In this document: in pieces, positions 31 to 6,093 of the stretch
How the letters are laid out: each line of letters starts with the position of its first letter
Numbering within the stretch: position 1 is the stretch's first letter
IMG/VR virus record: IMGVR_UViG_2541047172_000022
Origin: a virus
Lineage: Duplodnaviria > Heunggongvirae > Uroviricota > Caudoviricetes
Length of the DNA stretch: 6,181 bases
Reading direction: 5' to 3' (one strand)
The notes under the pieces: model-generated
Databases searched by the model: none
What the model was told of the DNA's origin: nothing
The model's input: the letters and a program-made list of their open reading frames with translations, nothing else
Made by a program: the position numbers and the translations under genes

Positions 31-585
31 TCAAAAAGCAATAACTTTTTTCTCTATACCAAAAGCCATAACCATTGGTTTGTACAAAATAAATTCTGCC
101 ACCTTTAGCCAATGCTCAATGCGTCTTTCACAGGTTCTTAAACTCCATTCCGGATGTGCATCATTCAGCAGTTCAGCCATTTTGCGCTTAGTCATCCCCC
201 GCCCCACATAACGCTGACTCAGAACATTGAGCAGCCCGGGATAACCTGCCAGTACTTCACCAATAACCCTGTCGATTATTAACGCCTCTGAATCGGTACA
301 ATGCACCAGCCAGCTTTTTTGCTTGCCGTTGATCATATCCCGCAAAAAAGCCTCAAGTTTAGGTTTGTCCAGACCTGCTTTTTTCATCCTCCGGAGCGCC
401 TCGTTAATTGCCGTTTTTGTCAGCTTTTTAGAGGTCAGCAACTGGTTGAACATATTTCCCGTCTTACCGCCGCCAATATACGACCAGCGCCCCCACATAC
501 GTAGTTTCCCCTGAATCCAGACACTTTCCAGCGTGGTGAGACGAAGGTGCTCTCCGCTTTTTCCTGTGTTCGTTGGGTAAATCAT
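31..585 (-). CDS. Lambdoid prophage protein of unknown function, 184 aa, downstream of the nin-type genes (possibly a late-gene regulator; not lambda-Q-like)
   Basis: Frame is open from 705, but the ATG at 585..583 overlaps the stop of the upstream gene (ATGA at 585..582) and has an AGGA-like Shine-Dalgarno about 9 nt upstream, whereas the ATG at 705 has none and would overlap the upstream gene by 124 nt. G+C resembles the adjacent phage genes. No Cys-rich zinc-finger pattern typical of lambda Q. Function is a guess from position. Confidence 0.6.
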   Translation of the reverse strand: MIYPTNTGKSGEHLRLTTLESVWIQGKLRMWGRWSYIGGGKTGNMFNQLLTSKKLTKTAINEALRRMKKAGLDKPKLEAFLRDMINGKQKSWLVHCTDSEALIIDRVIGEVLAGYPGLLNVLSQRYVGRGMTKRKMAELLNDAHPEWSLRTCERRIEHWLKVAEFILYKPMVMAFGIEKKVIAF

Positions 586-872
586 AAATAACCGTCCTTT
601 CTCCAGATCTCTTGTGTGCGAAAAACACCTTCTGCATGCATCAGGCGCAATTCTTCTTTGGTGTAATCGCTGGTTTTTACTCTCCCGTCGATTAAATCGT
701 GGCATGAGTTACAGGCAATCGCTGCCTGCATATCGTGTGGCTTTATCGCTGTTCCGCACGTTCCCGCCAGCCTGTAATGCGCCAGCACAGAGGTTTCGGG
801 ATTGTGATTGCAGTAGCCAGGGATTCTGATCTGGCATATCTGGCCTTTAGCCGCTTTACGTAAATTCACCAT
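582..872 (-). CDS. DUF1364-family putative zinc-binding protein, YbcO-like (lambdoid prophage nin region), 96 aa
   Basis: 96-aa ORF with the pattern LRKAAKG..CQIRIPGYCNHNPETSVLAH.RL.G.CGT..KP.D...AIACNSCHD.IDGR, matching what I recall of E. coli DLP12 YbcO / DUF1364 (same length, same four-Cys arrangement). Start ATG 872..870 overlaps the upstream stop (TAATG). Confidence 0.85.
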   Translation of the reverse strand: MVNLRKAAKGQICQIRIPGYCNHNPETSVLAHYRLAGTCGTAIKPHDMQAAIACNSCHDLIDGRVKTSDYTKEELRLMHAEGVFRTQEIWRKDGYL

Positions 873-1471
873 TACGCAAACTCCAGTAGTTGTGCGGCCA
901 CATTTTCAACTTCCTCCTGAGAGGAGAATTTACGGAACAGAATCCAGTTCCACAGCACATTCAGTACAGATTTATAAACCTGCTGAAACTCGACTTCGTC
1001 CATATTCGCAAAAGCGATGGATTTTGCCCGACGCCCACGGCTACCGTCCGGATAAATATGCTCGGTGTAAAATCCGGCCTGAATGGTTACCCACTCGCGG
1101 AAAGCCTCAAACGACTTTAGCAACGCCGTATCCCGGGTTCTACGAGTCGCAACGGTGTTAAGGTATTGCTCTGCGGCATCACTCAGGGCTGGCGTGTGTT
1201 CCCGACCAACTGATTCGCACAGGTAATCAACGAAACCAGACAGCAGTTCTCGTTCGCGAGGCGTGATCGCCCCACCGACCGGAGTCCAGTAATCGAATCC
1301 CAGTTGCAGGAGTTTGAAAAAACGCTTGTGGAATGCGTAGTTACGCACACGCTTAAAATCTGCGTGTATCCACTCACCTATTTTGATTTGATGCAGAAAA
1401 TCGCAACTCTCCGGCGTCGCCGGGAGAAGTAAACCAGAAGAAGTTTGTTTGACCAGTTGTATATGCGCCAT
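872..1471 (-). CDS. Lambdoid prophage nin-region protein, DUF1367-like, 199 aa
   Basis: Uninterrupted 199-aa ORF, co-directional with and coupled to the YbcO-like gene (stop TAA 874..872 overlaps its ATG). Balanced G+C like the phage backbone. DUF1367 assignment is from remembered co-occurrence with DUF1364 in prophages, not from a search. Confidence 0.7.
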   Translation of the reverse strand: MAHIQLVKQTSSGLLLPATPESCDFLHQIKIGEWIHADFKRVRNYAFHKRFFKLLQLGFDYWTPVGGAITPRERELLSGFVDYLCESVGREHTPALSDAAEQYLNTVATRRTRDTALLKSFEAFREWVTIQAGFYTEHIYPDGSRGRRAKSIAFANMDEVEFQQVYKSVLNVLWNWILFRKFSSQEEVENVAAQLLEFA

Positions 1472-1890
1472 TTCTCAATCTCTCGATGGCGCAGTGCAGC
1501 AGATGCCAGTTGTTCAAGCTAGCACGCAAATTGTAAACCAGAATGCCAGGAAAAAACAAAACCCGCCGAAGCTGGTTGTGTGCGGTTGCGTTGAAGTCTC
1601 CTAGCCAAAGAGTAGCGGTGACCACTCCCCGCCGATAATCTTAGTTGTTTAATTTCGTAAGCTAACTAGGCTAAAAGCTCTCTGTTGTCTGCCTGTTGTA
1701 CAATTAACAAAATGAACAACGAACTAGATATACCAACGCCAGAATGGTGCAACAAATCCCAAACAACACAGCAATGCAACAATAACATATGTTATTTTCC
1801 TCTCACGGGATTCAGTCCTGAATTCTCATAAAGCTAATCTTTTTTTAAAAACATACTGTTAGATCACATGCACTTTCTTTCTTAACATCG

Positions 1891-1918
1891 TTGACTTCGC
1901 ATGCGAAGCGTTTAAAAT
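1891..1918 (+). promoter_or_regulatory. Putative sigma70 promoter of the ATPase operon (-35 TTGACT 1891..1896, 16-bp spacer, -10 TAAAAT 1913..1918)
   Basis: Near-consensus hexamers at near-optimal spacing, about 50 nt upstream of the ATG at 1971; a purine-rich AGAGAG lies about 8 nt before that ATG as a weak Shine-Dalgarno. Confidence 0.55.
1895..1908. promoter_or_regulatory. Perfect 14-bp palindrome CTTCGCATGCGAAG in the promoter spacer; putative operator
   Basis: Read directly: 1895..1908 is its own reverse complement, overlapping the last 2 nt of the -35 and filling most of the spacer. Confidence 0.45.
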
Positions 1919-1970
1919 CAACAATTTGCACTTAAGGTATTTATTTTCCCAAACACATAGAGAGTAAATT

Positions 1971-3362
1971 ATGACTGAGAACACGACTCCAACAGCAGAC
2001 TTTAGTCCTAGTAAAAGATTTTTTGTAAGTATGCTAACTCGAGATATCGACTTAAACGATGCCATACTTGATCTGCTTGATAACTGCGTCGATGGGGCTT
2101 TACGTACAATAAAAGACACAAAAAAAACTTCAAAACCATATGAAGGATTTTATGCGAAACTTACGATTAATAAAGATGTCTTTATTATAGAAGACAATTG
2201 CGGAGGTATCCCTAAAAGCTTCCGAGAATATGCTTTTAAAATGGGACGACCCCATCAAAAAGAAGAAGAAAATGAAGGCACCGTTGGCGTCTATGGTATT
2301 GGTATGAAAAGAGCCATTTTTAAAATGGGTAGAGATTGCTCAATACAATCGAATAATCCCGATGGCGCATTCACTGTAGATATAACACCTGATTGGATCG
2401 ATGGTGATGGTTGGAAAATACCGATGCACGAGAGTGACTATGATAACAAAAATCCAACAGGCACAACTATAGAGATAAAAAAACTCCATTCTAATGTGGC
2501 ACAAAAATTTAATGAGAGCACATATCTTACTGATCTCTTTTTACAGATAAAACACTCATTGTCATTTATTATTCAAAAAGGATTTAAAATAGAATTAAAT
2601 GGAGTTGTTGTTGAACATAATCCGATTAACATCATAACTGATCATTCTAAAATAGAACCATACATATATAAAGCTAAAATAGACGATGTTGATATCGATT
2701 TAGTTGTTGGCTTCTATAAAAATTTAGAAGATGACAATGATGATGTTTTAGAAAAAAGGAGTTCTGATGATGCTGGATGGACTGTCATTTGCAATGACCG
2801 CGTTGTTCTATATTGTGATAAGACACATCTCACAGGTTGGGGCTTTGCTAATGTACCAAGGTTTCATACCCAATTTATAGCAATTTCTGGGGTTGTTCGC
2901 TTTACCAGTAAAAACCCAGAAAAATTACCAATAACAACAACGAAACGAGGTGTCGATCTTAGTTCTACATTGTACAATGATGTACGAAATAAAATGATTG
3001 AAGGGATGATGCATTTTATTCGATTCACCAATCAGTGGAAAGGTGAGCATCTTGAAGAAGGGAAAAAATTACTTAAGTCAGCTCAGTCACATGAAGCTCA
3101 ATCTTTATTTGAAATTACCCCACAATCAACTCCAGAAGATAAAAAAAATAACTGGTCCAACCCTAATAGAAACAAAAATGAGTGGCGATATACACCTAAG
3201 CTGCCTACCCCAGTAAAAAAAAGCTCTACTGTACGAATAATCTTCACCAGAGAGAAAGAAGATGTTAAAATTTTATCTAAATATTTCTTTGGACATGAAG
3301 ATGCTAGCGCTTCTGATGTGGGGATGCAATGCTTTGATACGGTGATTGAAGAGGTGAAGTGA
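1971..3362 (+). CDS. GHKL (Bergerat-fold) ATPase, MORC/MutL-like, 463 aa; candidate motor of a restriction or defence module
   Basis: All four Bergerat motifs in canonical order in the N-terminal 170 aa: N-box DLLDNCVDGA (nt 2070..2099), G1 box IEDNCGGI (nt 2190..2213), G2 box GTVGVYGIGMKRAIFKMG with the G-x-G-x-K...G pattern I associate with MORC-type ATPases (nt 2277..2330), and motif IV PTGTTIEI (nt 2457..2471). The C-terminal ~290 aa has no motif I can assign. Long clean ORF. Confidence 0.85.
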   Translation: MTENTTPTADFSPSKRFFVSMLTRDIDLNDAILDLLDNCVDGALRTIKDTKKTSKPYEGFYAKLTINKDVFIIEDNCGGIPKSFREYAFKMGRPHQKEEENEGTVGVYGIGMKRAIFKMGRDCSIQSNNPDGAFTVDITPDWIDGDGWKIPMHESDYDNKNPTGTTIEIKKLHSNVAQKFNESTYLTDLFLQIKHSLSFIIQKGFKIELNGVVVEHNPINIITDHSKIEPYIYKAKIDDVDIDLVVGFYKNLEDDNDDVLEKRSSDDAGWTVICNDRVVLYCDKTHLTGWGFANVPRFHTQFIAISGVVRFTSKNPEKLPITTTKRGVDLSSTLYNDVRNKMIEGMMHFIRFTNQWKGEHLEEGKKLLKSAQSHEAQSLFEITPQSTPEDKKNNWSNPNRNKNEWRYTPKLPTPVKKSSTVRIIFTREKEDVKILSKYFFGHEDASASDVGMQCFDTVIEEVK

Positions 3363-4351
3363 TGTCTGGACAATACATTCCCTATCACTTAAGGCATAAT
3401 AAGTCTATTGATAGAGAGATTTTTCTCGAAAGCCTAAACCTCTTAAGCAAAAGACTAAATATTCAAGAATATACATATATAGGTTTTGGTGGTCCGATGC
3501 TTGAAGATTTTAGAATCATGCATAATCGTATCGCTCTTTCTGATATGATTTCTCTCGAAGAACAAGAGTCTACTCACATCAGACAAAAATATAATTTGCC
3601 TTATAATTGTATTGATTGTAAGCTAATATCAGCTCATGACTTTATTCTTGATTATAGTTTTTCTAAACCATCAATAACATGGTTAGACTATGCCTCCCCG
3701 AAAAAAATACAAACGGATCTAGATGATATACACTTACTAAGTACTAAAGTAAGCTCTTTTGATATTTTGAAGGTCACCTTCCCCATAAATCCTAGTTCTT
3801 ATTACCAACGTAGAGTTGGAGAAAGTTTAGATATTTTTAAAGAAGCTTTTATTAATTCATTAAAATCATTGCTTGGGAAAAAGTATCTTGATTTTAATCT
3901 TCAGATATCAAATGCAGATCTTTCAGATCGTAAGATTAAAGCTCTTTTAATACGAATTATTACAAACGCTTTTAGATCAGCAATAGAACGTGGTCTTTCA
4001 GGACGTAAGGATAAGATTCAGTATTACCCATTATCCTTAAATCAATATAATGATGGCAGTCATACCATGTTGACAATATCAGGTTTTTTCTCCTCAGAAC
4101 AAGAATATATAGAGTTATCTAAGGCATGCGACCTTTCTAACTGGCAATTTTATTCAACAAATTGGGAAGACGTGCAAGAAATAGCAATACCAACACTAAC
4201 AATTAAAGAAAAGATAAATTTAGATAGTAAACTGCCTGATAAAGAAGCATATCAGGCAGCCGCTGAAGAGTTCTCTTTAAACGAAAATGAACGGGATAAC
4301 TATTATAAATACTATAGGTTATACCCTAACTTCCAAAGAATTATGGTTTAA
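3362..4351 (+). CDS. Uncharacterised partner protein of the GHKL ATPase, 329 aa from the ATG at 3362; candidate effector or specificity subunit
   Basis: The ATG at 3362 overlaps the ATPase stop (TGATG, 3360..3364) and has GAGGTG 5 nt upstream; the in-frame GTG at 3359 is too close to that SD. Same AT-rich composition as the ATPase. No PD-(D/E)xK, HNH, PLD, Walker or methyltransferase motif could be confidently identified by eye; there is a CxxC pair (YNCIDCK) and a glycine-rich IGFGGP segment. Confidence 0.8.
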   Translation: MSGQYIPYHLRHNKSIDREIFLESLNLLSKRLNIQEYTYIGFGGPMLEDFRIMHNRIALSDMISLEEQESTHIRQKYNLPYNCIDCKLISAHDFILDYSFSKPSITWLDYASPKKIQTDLDDIHLLSTKVSSFDILKVTFPINPSSYYQRRVGESLDIFKEAFINSLKSLLGKKYLDFNLQISNADLSDRKIKALLIRIITNAFRSAIERGLSGRKDKIQYYPLSLNQYNDGSHTMLTISGFFSSEQEYIELSKACDLSNWQFYSTNWEDVQEIAIPTLTIKEKINLDSKLPDKEAYQAAAEEFSLNENERDNYYKYYRLYPNFQRIMV

Positions 4352-5470
4352 ATATTCGGGCTGTACTCTTTTATTTAATAAATTGTACAGCCCCTTTAAT
4401 ATATATTCAGCAACTATTGGTGACACGCTATTTCCTATTTGTCTGAAACTATGCCATTTAGTTACATGAAAGCGAAACCAATCAGGGAAGCCTTGTAATC
4501 TAGCAGCTTCTCTTGGTGTAATCACTCTTGGATGATAAGGGTGGATCGGCCTGACGGCTTGAAAGCTTCCTTTATCTCTAGCGGTTCCCGCCCTTAAAGT
4601 CGGGCAAAAACCATTTGGATCTAATCTTGTAGATCTTGAAATTTTATCAGTTTCCCCAAAAGATAAGGAAGCATAACGCTCTTGGACGATTTTGCTATGT
4701 AATGTTCCGGTACATCCAGATATGATATTATTTTTTAACTTAGCGATCGATTCTGTATCACCAACATTCCGAGGGATCTGCCCCCATAATTTTTCATAAA
4801 ATCCCCCTTTTCGATCTTTTTTAATTGTTCGCCAACTCTCAGAGTCTGATTGCCAATTGGCATCGATAATATCTGGTAATCCATACAAAGCATCTTTTAC
4901 AGTAACCGGATCAATCATTTTAGGCATAAATACTTCATCTGAAATATCAAGCTTCAATGATTTTTTTACACCGATAAAAAAATATCTAGTTCGAATAGTT
5001 GGAGCACCATAATCAGATGCTTTTACCTTGATGGGATCAAGAATATCATAATCACCGCTAACCAAATTAAATGCTTTATTTCTAATGCCAGAATATTTCT
5101 CTTGCATAATACCTGGAACATTTTCTGCCAAAAAGAATAATGGCTGTAATTCTGATACTAAACGGTAGAAATGCATGTAAAGCTGATTCCTGCTATCATC
5201 AGGATTCCCCTTGCCTATTGAACTAAATCCTTGGCACGGAGGACCGCCAATAATACCATCTATGGGCATATCGTTTTTAAAAAAACCCTTAATTATTTCT
5301 GCATTTAGTAAAGAAACATCTTCTTGGACGTGCAAACTTCTTGGAAAATTAATTGCGTGAGTATTAATAGCATGTTGATCAATTTCAACTGCCATTTTAA
5401 CATCAAATCCAGCACGTGCAGCACCAAGACTTAGACCTCCAACGCCAGAAAACAAATCTATTACATTCAT
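4319..5470 (-). CDS. DNA cytosine-C5 methyltransferase, 383 aa
   Basis: Canonical C5-MTase motifs in order: I DLFSGVGG (FxGxGG, nt 5435..5458), IV GGPPCQGFS with catalytic Cys79 (codon 5234..5236), VI FLAENVPG (ENV), VIII PTIRTRYFFIG, IX/X RVITPREAARLQGFPDWF and QIGNSVSP. A variable region between VIII and IX is consistent with a target-recognition domain. Confidence 0.92.
   Translation of the reverse strand: MNVIDLFSGVGGLSLGAARAGFDVKMAVEIDQHAINTHAINFPRSLHVQEDVSLLNAEIIKGFFKNDMPIDGIIGGPPCQGFSSIGKGNPDDSRNQLYMHFYRLVSELQPLFFLAENVPGIMQEKYSGIRNKAFNLVSGDYDILDPIKVKASDYGAPTIRTRYFFIGVKKSLKLDISDEVFMPKMIDPVTVKDALYGLPDIIDANWQSDSESWRTIKKDRKGGFYEKLWGQIPRNVGDTESIAKLKNNIISGCTGTLHSKIVQERYASLSFGETDKISRSTRLDPNGFCPTLRAGTARDKGSFQAVRPIHPYHPRVITPREAARLQGFPDWFRFHVTKWHSFRQIGNSVSPIVAEYILKGLYNLLNKRVQPEYLNHNSLEVRV
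4357..4394 (+). terminator. Hairpin downstream of the ATPase-operon stop (9-bp stem GGGCTGTAC / GTACAGCCC, 18-nt loop, then CTTTAAT); weak candidate terminator
   Basis: Perfect 9-bp inverted repeat at 4358..4366 and 4385..4393, starting 6 nt after the partner-gene stop. It lies inside the 3' coding region of the convergent methyltransferase. The large loop and short T-run make it a weak intrinsic terminator. Confidence 0.25.
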
Positions 5471-5502
5471 ATAGTTGCAACGTCTCTTATTAGTTTCTAT
5501 GT

Positions 5503-5532
5503 ATTATAACACAACTGTTCTTGATGTTTTAA
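5503..5532 (-). promoter_or_regulatory. Putative methyltransferase promoter with extended -10 (TGtTATAAT) and weak -35 (TTAAAA, 18-bp spacer)
   Basis: On the minus strand a perfect TATAAT (complement of 5503..5508) is preceded by TGT (5509..5511), with TTAAAA at 5527..5532. It sits about 30 nt upstream of the ATG at 5470. Confidence 0.5.
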
Positions 5533-5732
5533 CCCCATAAGATAACCTCATAAAGGCTATCCCTTGAAAATACCGGATCGCATAAATTTAATCTTTCAAA
5601 ACTACTTGTCTATTAATCGAGCAATTTAAGGTTGTTTTAGTCATGTCGATACCGACATAGTTAACTAAACCCATTTCATCGTCCAACAAATGGGGGTAAT
5701 ACACTTTGATTTATAGTCGGGTGGGTTTTTCT

Positions 5733-5767
5733 CTATCTGCCTTTGGTGTTCATGCCCAAGGCAGATA
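5733..5767. repeat. Imperfect inverted repeat (CTATCTGCCTTTGG ... CCAAGGCAGATAG) at the right edge of the island
   Basis: Arms of about 13 bp with one bulged T, around a 9-nt loop, immediately after GGGTGGGTTTTT. No U-run follows the stem on either transcript, so it is not a canonical intrinsic terminator. Confidence 0.4.
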
Positions 5768-5821
5768 GCCTCAAGCACCCGCAGCAATTCTACTTAACTA
5801 TCCTTTTCCCGCAAATCGTTT

Positions 5822-5905
5822 TTATCCCCAGCGGCAAATCGAATACACAACCAGCGCCACCGCCATCGCAATTCCTACCGTTGTGAATGCTTCAGGCCAG
5901 GTCAT
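5822..5905 (-). CDS. Possible small hydrophobic protein, 27 aa (MTWPEAFTTVGIAMAVALVVYSICRWG)
   Basis: Its ATG (5905..5903) overlaps the stop of the 63-aa ORF (ATGA) and is preceded by GGAGGTG about 6 nt upstream. The product has a hydrophobic core typical of small membrane peptides. It was translated by hand and is below the ORF-track size cutoff. Confidence 0.3.
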   Translation of the reverse strand: MTWPEAFTTVGIAMAVALVVYSICRWG

Positions 5906-6093
5906 TGATTCACCTCCTGCGGCGGTTCTGGTAGCGACATCCAGTGGGTTGCTTGCCTAAGATCATTACCCGGACTAACTGCTATACCTCCGCGCCGGAA
6001 CGTGCCTCCGAGATAGCGTGCGGAATATATTAATGGCCCAGCCTCGCTATCGATATTCATCGAAATAAGCACGTTCTGGCTCTTTTCAGGCAT
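5902..6093 (-). CDS. Hypothetical prophage protein, 63 aa
   Basis: ORF with phage-like G+C, co-directional with the other phage genes, starting 4 nt after the stop of the partial upstream ORF. No family recognised. Confidence 0.5.
   Translation of the reverse strand: MPEKSQNVLISMNIDSEAGPLIYSARYLGGTFRRGGIAVSPGNDLRQATHWMSLPEPPQEVNQ

Follow-up and report, generated by a model that had tools for sequence, protein, structure and literature searches.

A cytosine methyltransferase of prophage Sp10 as the probable modification enzyme of a mobile cassette with a MORC-like ATPase

The lambdoid prophage Sp10 of Escherichia coli O157:H7 Sakai (CP-933R in EDL933) includes the stretch of DNA analyzed here (IMG/VR record IMGVR_UViG_2541047172_000022, 6,181 nucleotides, hereafter the window). 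It carries a C5 DNA methyltransferase (MTase) gene (ECs1953; 4319-5470, minus strand, ATG start, 383 aa), recognized by Pfam, TIGRFAM, motif and structure matches, that converges on an operon composed of the gene of a MORC-like GHKL ATPase (1971..3362, plus strand) and a partner gene of family PF20553 (3362..4351, plus strand). The locus raises the question of whether this MTase is a phage orphan or the cognate enzyme of the neighboring operon, which the initial annotation, made from the sequence alone, had left open. We consider it quite likely that the MTase belongs, as the dedicated modification enzyme, to a self-contained and horizontally mobile three-gene cassette that resembles a restriction-modification (R-M) system. 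In Sp10 this cassette would be cargo that is expressed in the lysogen and lodged in a phage hotspot, and it is probably anti-phage.

The linkage of these genes was tested in both directions, with loci that had been chosen by homology to one gene only, either the ATPase or the MTase. Among 95 ATPase loci (80 from metagenomes, selected solely by homology to the ATPase, pooled with other loci), 83 had a directly adjacent C5 MTase gene in a standard geometry, i.e., upstream and co-directional (45 loci), downstream and convergent as in Sp10 (35 loci), or downstream and co-directional (3 loci). Three further loci had an adjacent MTase gene in an odd geometry, seven were on contigs too short to tell, and only two had room for the MTase gene and lacked it. 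For the MTase-first sample, 59 viral contigs were selected solely by the homology of their MTase. All 47 with an MTase at least 59% identical to the one studied here also carried the genes of the ATPase and the PF20553 protein, convergent to the MTase gene, and neither gene was found in the 12 loci where this identity was 46% or lower. The same trio was observed with the chromosomal MTase orthologues of Marinobacter and Klebsiella, also picked by MTase homology, and in Leptospira, Methylomonas, a Gemmatimonadetes metagenome-assembled genome, Yersinia, Azoarcus, a spirochaete and Smithella, at sites that varied from positions between housekeeping genes to integrase islands. The MTases of these trios were typically 50-57% identical to the Sp10 enzyme where the ATPases were only 43-47% identical, and therefore most of the MTases form a dedicated, co-inherited clade.

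At closer range the picture was the same. Among complete E. coli genomes, 172 carried the MTase and 173 the ATPase operon, and the stretch 1650-5750 of the window was present, at 99% identity or more, in 173 of 5426. Another viral contig (L110) aligned to exactly positions 1886-5532 (78.7% nucleotide identity, with proteins 83-85% identical), which delimits a mobile cassette (1886..5532) bounded by the promoters of the ATPase and MTase genes. Across phyla the three genes are inherited together, and they move as one promoter-to-promoter unit. No constant fourth gene went with the trio other than Vsr, which 41 of 97 loci had within the operon or beside it and which the Sp10 copy lacks. Taken together, the linkage in both directions, the E. 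coli counts and the L110 unit refute the orphan reading for this orthogroup, and comparative genomics strongly supports a cognate enzyme tied to the island.

Some loci depart from the usual arrangement in other ways. In Acinetobacter calcoaceticus (L231), an MTase 58% identical to that of Sp10 is paired with a 650-aa GHKL+S5 ATPase (6124-8076 of that locus) that contains a long (QQGQQD)n repeat, with no PF20553 gene. In human gut metagenome contigs (L036-L045 and L076) the trio and an EcoRII-like R-M system stand back to back; the latter has EcoRII-N/-C, a C5 methyltransferase of its own and Vsr, so that two C5 methylase genes are adjacent.

The MTase itself is aligned over its whole length with PF00145 (residues 1-361 against profile positions 1-322 of 324, E = 2.6e-61, Pfam), and its score with TIGR00675 (dcm) was 157 bits against a cut-off of 100.65. 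As expected of a C5 DNA cytosine methyltransferase, the motifs occur in the canonical order, i.e., I (FSGVGG at residue 7), IV (GGPPCQ, with its PCQ at residue 78 and the catalytic Cys79), VI (ENV at 116), VIII (RTRYF at 160), IX (RVITPRE at 315) and X (GNSV at 346), with a variable target-recognition domain (TRD) between VIII and IX. The catalytic motifs, including the PCQ cysteine, are intact, as initially read. Residues 1-367 are 100% identical to PDB 3G7U (E = 1e-254), and the enzyme could be aligned to M.HaeIII. The methylase is an already known, crystallised protein, and by itself it is an ordinary enzyme. The protein has been detected in vivo (PMC12551062). Given the intact motifs, the crystallised protein and its detection in vivo, it is reasonable to regard the MTase as probably active. 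There was no characterised homologue of known specificity among the top MTase matches, and no methylome report was found in the literature searched; the initial annotation was right that the target motif is not readable from the sequence.

The TRDs are informative about the way in which the rest of the cassette might work. Among 57 non-redundant trios, 41 had a TRD that could be aligned to that of the Sp10 MTase (36-62% identity), and in the other 16 it was unrelated. The similarity of the ATPases and partners was independent of the TRD clusters (median identity 0.44 within and 0.43 between clusters), and TRD swaps were observed, e.g., between loci L057 and L069, in which the ATPases are 74% identical, the partners 65% and the MTases 33%. 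Since ATPase-partner similarity does not track the TRD clusters and swaps occur, the module probably does not itself read the target of the MTase, which argues against the logic of a Type II-like endonuclease. Generic sensing of the mark, or the use of the MTase as a specificity subunit, is favoured.

The ATPase, for which more than 5,000 homologues were matched, has the make-up of MORC/paraMORC GHKL proteins: a Bergerat-fold domain bearing the ATP-binding motifs I-IV comes first, and after it an S5-fold domain that has the conserved lysine. The GHKL motifs are invariant, and the lysine of the S5-like domain lies in a TTTKRG motif. Its closest structural matches were MORC3, SMCHD1 and MORC2, and the fold is related to MutL; MORC3 was also the sole PDB sequence match, a marginal one, of the ATPase family profile. 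Motif I reads DLLDNCVD (residues 34-41, window 2070-2093), and an invariant Asp in it replaces the catalytic Glu of MORC, MutL and GyrB throughout the family (57 sequences). The signatures of paraMORC1-5 (ExxxH in the S5 domain; restriction endonuclease (RE)-fold, TIR or HxH C-terminal domains), as described in PMC2292703, had no obvious fit to it. The partner yielded a confident structure model (predicted local distance difference test, pLDDT, 88) with a class I S-adenosylmethionine (SAM)-methyltransferase fold, nearest to RsmD-like and Trm1 enzymes. The hallmarks of class I SAM-dependent methyltransferases, i.e., a Rossmann-like seven-strand fold with a Gly-rich motif I, an acidic residue following strand 2 and a motif IV residue following strand 4, are matched by the partner, which has glycine, glutamate and aspartate in motifs I, II and IV. 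It has a family-specific N-terminal Y-R-NK-R motif, and the (D/N)PP(Y/F) motif of amino-methylases is absent, with WLDY at that place. PF20553 comprises 2,212 representatives of 50%-identity clusters, and both the ATPase and the partner belong to families of 'unknown function' in PHROGs. The classical restriction partner that the first reading implied for the MTase was not borne out as such: the two products of the operon are a GHKL ATPase of MORC-like type and a protein with a SAM-methyltransferase fold, and neither is recognisable as a nuclease.

If the ATPase and partner depended on the MTase as in an R-M system, the genes should decay asymmetrically. The partner was truncated or missing and the MTase intact in four loci (L029, L047, L094 and L143), and all three genes were fragmented in L016. 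In E. coli O157:H7 F6294 (L098, NZ_CP038372.1), the only incomplete trio among 173 E. coli genomes, a single deletion of 2,032 bp (window 3731-5762) takes two thirds of the partner gene, from about codon 124 on, and the whole MTase gene with its promoter, whereas the ATPase gene is untouched. A broken MTase together with an intact ATPase and partner was seen in no locus examined. This pattern is consistent with what an R-M-like dependence would predict. In the P2-like prophage IMGVR_UViG_2907859159_000001 (L143/L181), a frameshift splits the partner into two open reading frames (ORFs), with methylase and ATPase intact.

We propose that the methylase, expressed from its own promoter, would mark host and prophage DNA with 5-methylcytosine (5mC), and that the ATPase-partner complex would act on DNA that lacks this mark, as R-M systems do, so that the loss of the methylase alone would be costly. 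The effector step is probably not a classical sequence-specific cleavage, because there is no nuclease and near-identical ATPase/partner pairs go with methylases of unrelated TRD. Speculatively, it could be an ATP-driven clamping or compaction of unmarked DNA, an activity that uses the methylase as specificity subunit, or a methyl-transfer reaction carried out by the partner. The more specific idea of a nuclease-free, methylation-guided immunity, in which a MORC-type clamp and its partner would neutralise DNA without 5mC by ATP-driven entrapment or compaction or by methyl transfer, is tentative, and we think it rather unlikely.

Several observations weigh against the view of the cassette as an R-M-like system. 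No nuclease fold or family, nor any other effector domain, was detected in the ATPase or the partner by any search, PADLOC v2 returned no match for either protein, no experiments on the cassette genes were found in the literature searched, and the cases of decay are few. Furthermore, a cyanobacterial-like clade (L010 from Scytonema and L067; probably L034, L040 and L064) has the ATPase-PF20553 pair with no adjacent MTase, and no MTase remnants were found there, though the flanks have room. Lethality of the pair in the absence of an adjacent methylase is therefore not a general rule, although an unlinked methylase gene could lie elsewhere. Finally, the linkage to Vsr and a MutL/MORC-like ATPase would also suit a role in repair or in epigenetic control.

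That last point is the core of another explanation, in which the C5 methylase would write 5mC and the ATPase and partner would read this mark, or aid the very-short-patch repair of T:G mismatches with Vsr, or silence or compact marked DNA. Besides the frequent presence of Vsr and the closeness of the ATPase fold to MORC and SMCHD1 and its relation to MutL, the lack of a nuclease, the loci between housekeeping genes and the clade with no linked MTase speak for it. However, Vsr also accompanies the C5 methylases of ordinary R-M systems (Iyer et al. 2008), the Sp10 copy does without one of its own, the cassette recurs in phage defence or cargo hotspots and next to other defence genes, and it is horizontally mobile and sporadic in its occurrence, as conflict systems typically are; hence we regard such a module as improbable. 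The absence of a nuclease would also fit a system with two methyltransferases, in which the PF20553 protein would be a second nucleic-acid methyltransferase that is loaded or regulated by the ATPase, and the cassette would only modify DNA or RNA, with no restriction, e.g., to shield the prophage from other restriction systems. The fold of the partner, nearest to RNA and DNA base methylases (RsmD, Trm1), and its conserved residues in motifs I, II and IV agree with this, but WLDY stands in the place of the canonical (D/N)PP(Y/F) motif, and neither the invariable coupling to the ATPase, nor the decay asymmetry, with the partner lost and the MTase kept, nor the swaps of the C5 MTase to other TRDs would be explained. 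Such a system appears highly improbable.

A further alternative, an orphan phage methyltransferase that works alone in restriction evasion or in the regulation of phage genes, beside an unrelated ATPase operon, draws on the setting of the gene. The MTase gene is indeed co-oriented with the phage genes, since Q, YbcO and DUF1367 are all on the minus strand as well, it has a promoter-like site of its own, and the ATPase operon runs in the other direction; moreover, lambdoid phages carry solitary methylases in this general region. Examples of Dam-like solitary methylases in lambdoid phages are found in PMC6602927. Against this, none of the close relatives found lacks the ATPase operon, so that the suggestion of a phage anti-restriction orphan fails: the trio is kept in every one of the 47 close viral relatives and in 83 + 3 of the 95 ATPase loci, it also occurs at non-phage chromosomal sites and in the co-directional order MTase-ATPase-partner, the homology unit of the cassette takes in the MTase and its promoter, and it is the unrelated C5 MTases on viral contigs that go without the ATPase (12 of 12). 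An orphan is thus hardly credible here, and the reading that we retain is that of the dedicated modification enzyme of an R-M-like cassette.

The related phage vB_EcoS-666R9 aligns up to position 1520 of the window and again from 5723, with other cargo between, and this homology break, together with the drop in GC content from about 0.50 to 0.30-0.40, defines a cargo slot, or island, of Sp10/CP-933R at 1521..5722. The MTase gene shares the AT-rich composition of the ATPase operon, as had been noted (36.5% GC, against 35.3% for the ATPase gene and 31.9% for the partner gene; 46-52% in the flanking phage genes). A site for an own extended -10 promoter, which had also been pointed out, was found upstream of the MTase gene (TTAAAA-18-TG-TATAAT, 5503..5532, minus strand), as a consensus match only; it was the top-scoring sigma-70-like site of the consensus scan in 1450-5950, ends 33 nt upstream of the MTase ATG and lies inside the conserved cassette unit. 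The ATPase-partner operon is preceded by a promoter-like site (TTGACT-16-TAAAAT, 1891..1918, plus strand, 10 of 12 consensus matches) that ends 53 nt upstream of the ATPase ATG at 1971. The scan gave 19 sites against 16.2 expected, and such a consensus match is no proof of a promoter. At the other end, the overlap of the 3' end of the MTase gene with the partner gene is real by direct sequence reading, with 33 bp of convergent overlap (4319..4351), and overlaps of 8-50 bp were observed in 25 of 35 convergent loci elsewhere. The partner most likely starts at ATG 3362 (a GTG at 3359 was corrected), where a TGATG stop/start overlap would couple its translation to that of the ATPase gene. The operon (ECs1954 and ECs1955) is transcribed and co-regulated in the lysogen (PMC2241611).

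Around the island the setting is that of a phage. In Sakai the 28 kb around the locus contain phage genes only, and in the window those for an antiterminator Q-like protein, YbcO and DUF1367, and a DUF551 gene at the far end, are on the minus strand. Among the 47 viral loci with a close MTase, the trio lies between the gpA and portal genes of P2 in 21, and 17, in lambdoid phages, have it next to DUF1367; the P2 gpA/portal slot is a P2 defence hotspot (Vassallo et al., PMC9519451). Elsewhere the neighbors include integrases, EcoRII, Abi_2, HNH/ScoMcrA, Type I HsdR and Tn7 genes. The Q/DUF1133 ORF, if taken mechanically (31-705, minus strand), is too long and runs 124 nt into YbcO; in the Sakai annotation it starts at window position 585 and overlaps the YbcO stop by 4 nt. 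Next to the island, positions 5723-5946 share homology with the hok/sok-like region of Stx phages (933W L0139/L0140/sokW), with no Rfam family reaching threshold there, and a hydrophobic ORF of 27 aa (5822-5905, minus strand) abuts the DUF551 gene.

The interest of the MTase lies in its context, a widespread three-gene cassette that PADLOC does not cover and that occupies P2 and lambdoid defence hotspots in the prophages of enterobacteria, E. coli O157:H7 among them. Should the cassette act in defence, it would be an example of immunity that methylation directs without cleavage, and the connection of MORC proteins with DNA methylation could be studied in an experimentally tractable bacterial system. 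If nuclease-free immunity were true, the cassette would be a prokaryotic counterpart, and possibly the ancestor, of the eukaryotic coupling of cytosine methylation to MORC/SMCHD1 silencing. For O157:H7, a second 5mC motif is predicted in Sp10-positive lineage I strains; a PacBio SMRT study of O157:H7 could not detect 5mC, and therefore such a motif may have gone unnoticed.

How does the cassette compare with known systems? With Type II R-M systems (HaeIII, or EcoRII with Dcm/Vsr) it shares a separate C5 MTase with its own promoter, a Vsr that is often adjacent, modification and 'R' genes that are convergent or co-directional, the mobility of the unit and a decay asymmetry consistent with a post-segregational cost. 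Unlike them, it has no endonuclease, its 'R' side being an ATPase and a methyltransferase-fold protein, and near-identical 'R' modules go with MTases of unrelated TRD, which would be intolerable for a sequence-specific Type II endonuclease. A Type II system was rejected, since no cognate endonuclease with a nuclease fold (PD-(D/E)xK, HNH, GIY-YIG, PLD and similar) was detected in the cassette. To BREX (with its PglX methylase) and to Type I/III R-M the cassette is similar in logic only: a methylase would mark self, ATPase-containing partners would act on unmarked DNA, and specificity may sit in the methylase subunit, which would permit methylase swaps. There is no homologous component except for the generic methyltransferase fold. 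In BREX and in Type I/III systems the methylases are N6-adenine enzymes and the ATPases are of P-loop or SF2 type, in place of a C5 MTase and a GHKL ATPase. More generally, PADLOC matches were limited to the MTase, with generic C5 MTase models (DruM, DrmMII), and the signature non-methylase components of the known PADLOC v2 systems (BREX, DISARM, Druantia, PD-lambda-5 and others) were not found.

PD-lambda-5 is a validated defence system, described as 'compacted prophage RM+Abi' (Vassallo et al. 2022, PMC9519451), and like it the cassette is prophage-borne and contains a methylase. Moreover, the long GHKL ATPases that stand by MTases of the same clade (L231, 6124-8076; L049, 3054-4934; L090, 8675-10336; L226, 4965-6686) have C-terminal regions of about 200 aa with matches to the PD-Lambda-5_A model in its C-terminal half (best E-values between 1.7e-8, in L226, and 1.8e-22, in L090). 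This shared C-terminal domain is missing in Sp10, and none of the three proteins of the window matches the PD-lambda-5 models. The MORC/paraMORC GHKL ATPase neighborhoods that were predicted as R-M systems from gene context only (Iyer, Abhiman & Aravind 2008, PMC2292703) likewise combine a GHKL+S5 ATPase with a DNA cytosine methylase, often with Vsr, and are laterally mobile. In contrast with the Sp10 cassette, they are centered on SF2 helicases and on RE-fold, HNH, TIR or other nuclease-like partners; the cassette has neither helicase nor nuclease, its constant partner is the PF20553 methyltransferase-fold protein, and its ATPase has Asp, not Glu, in motif I. It is this R-M prediction for the MORC/paraMORC neighborhoods that is the closest description of the cassette.
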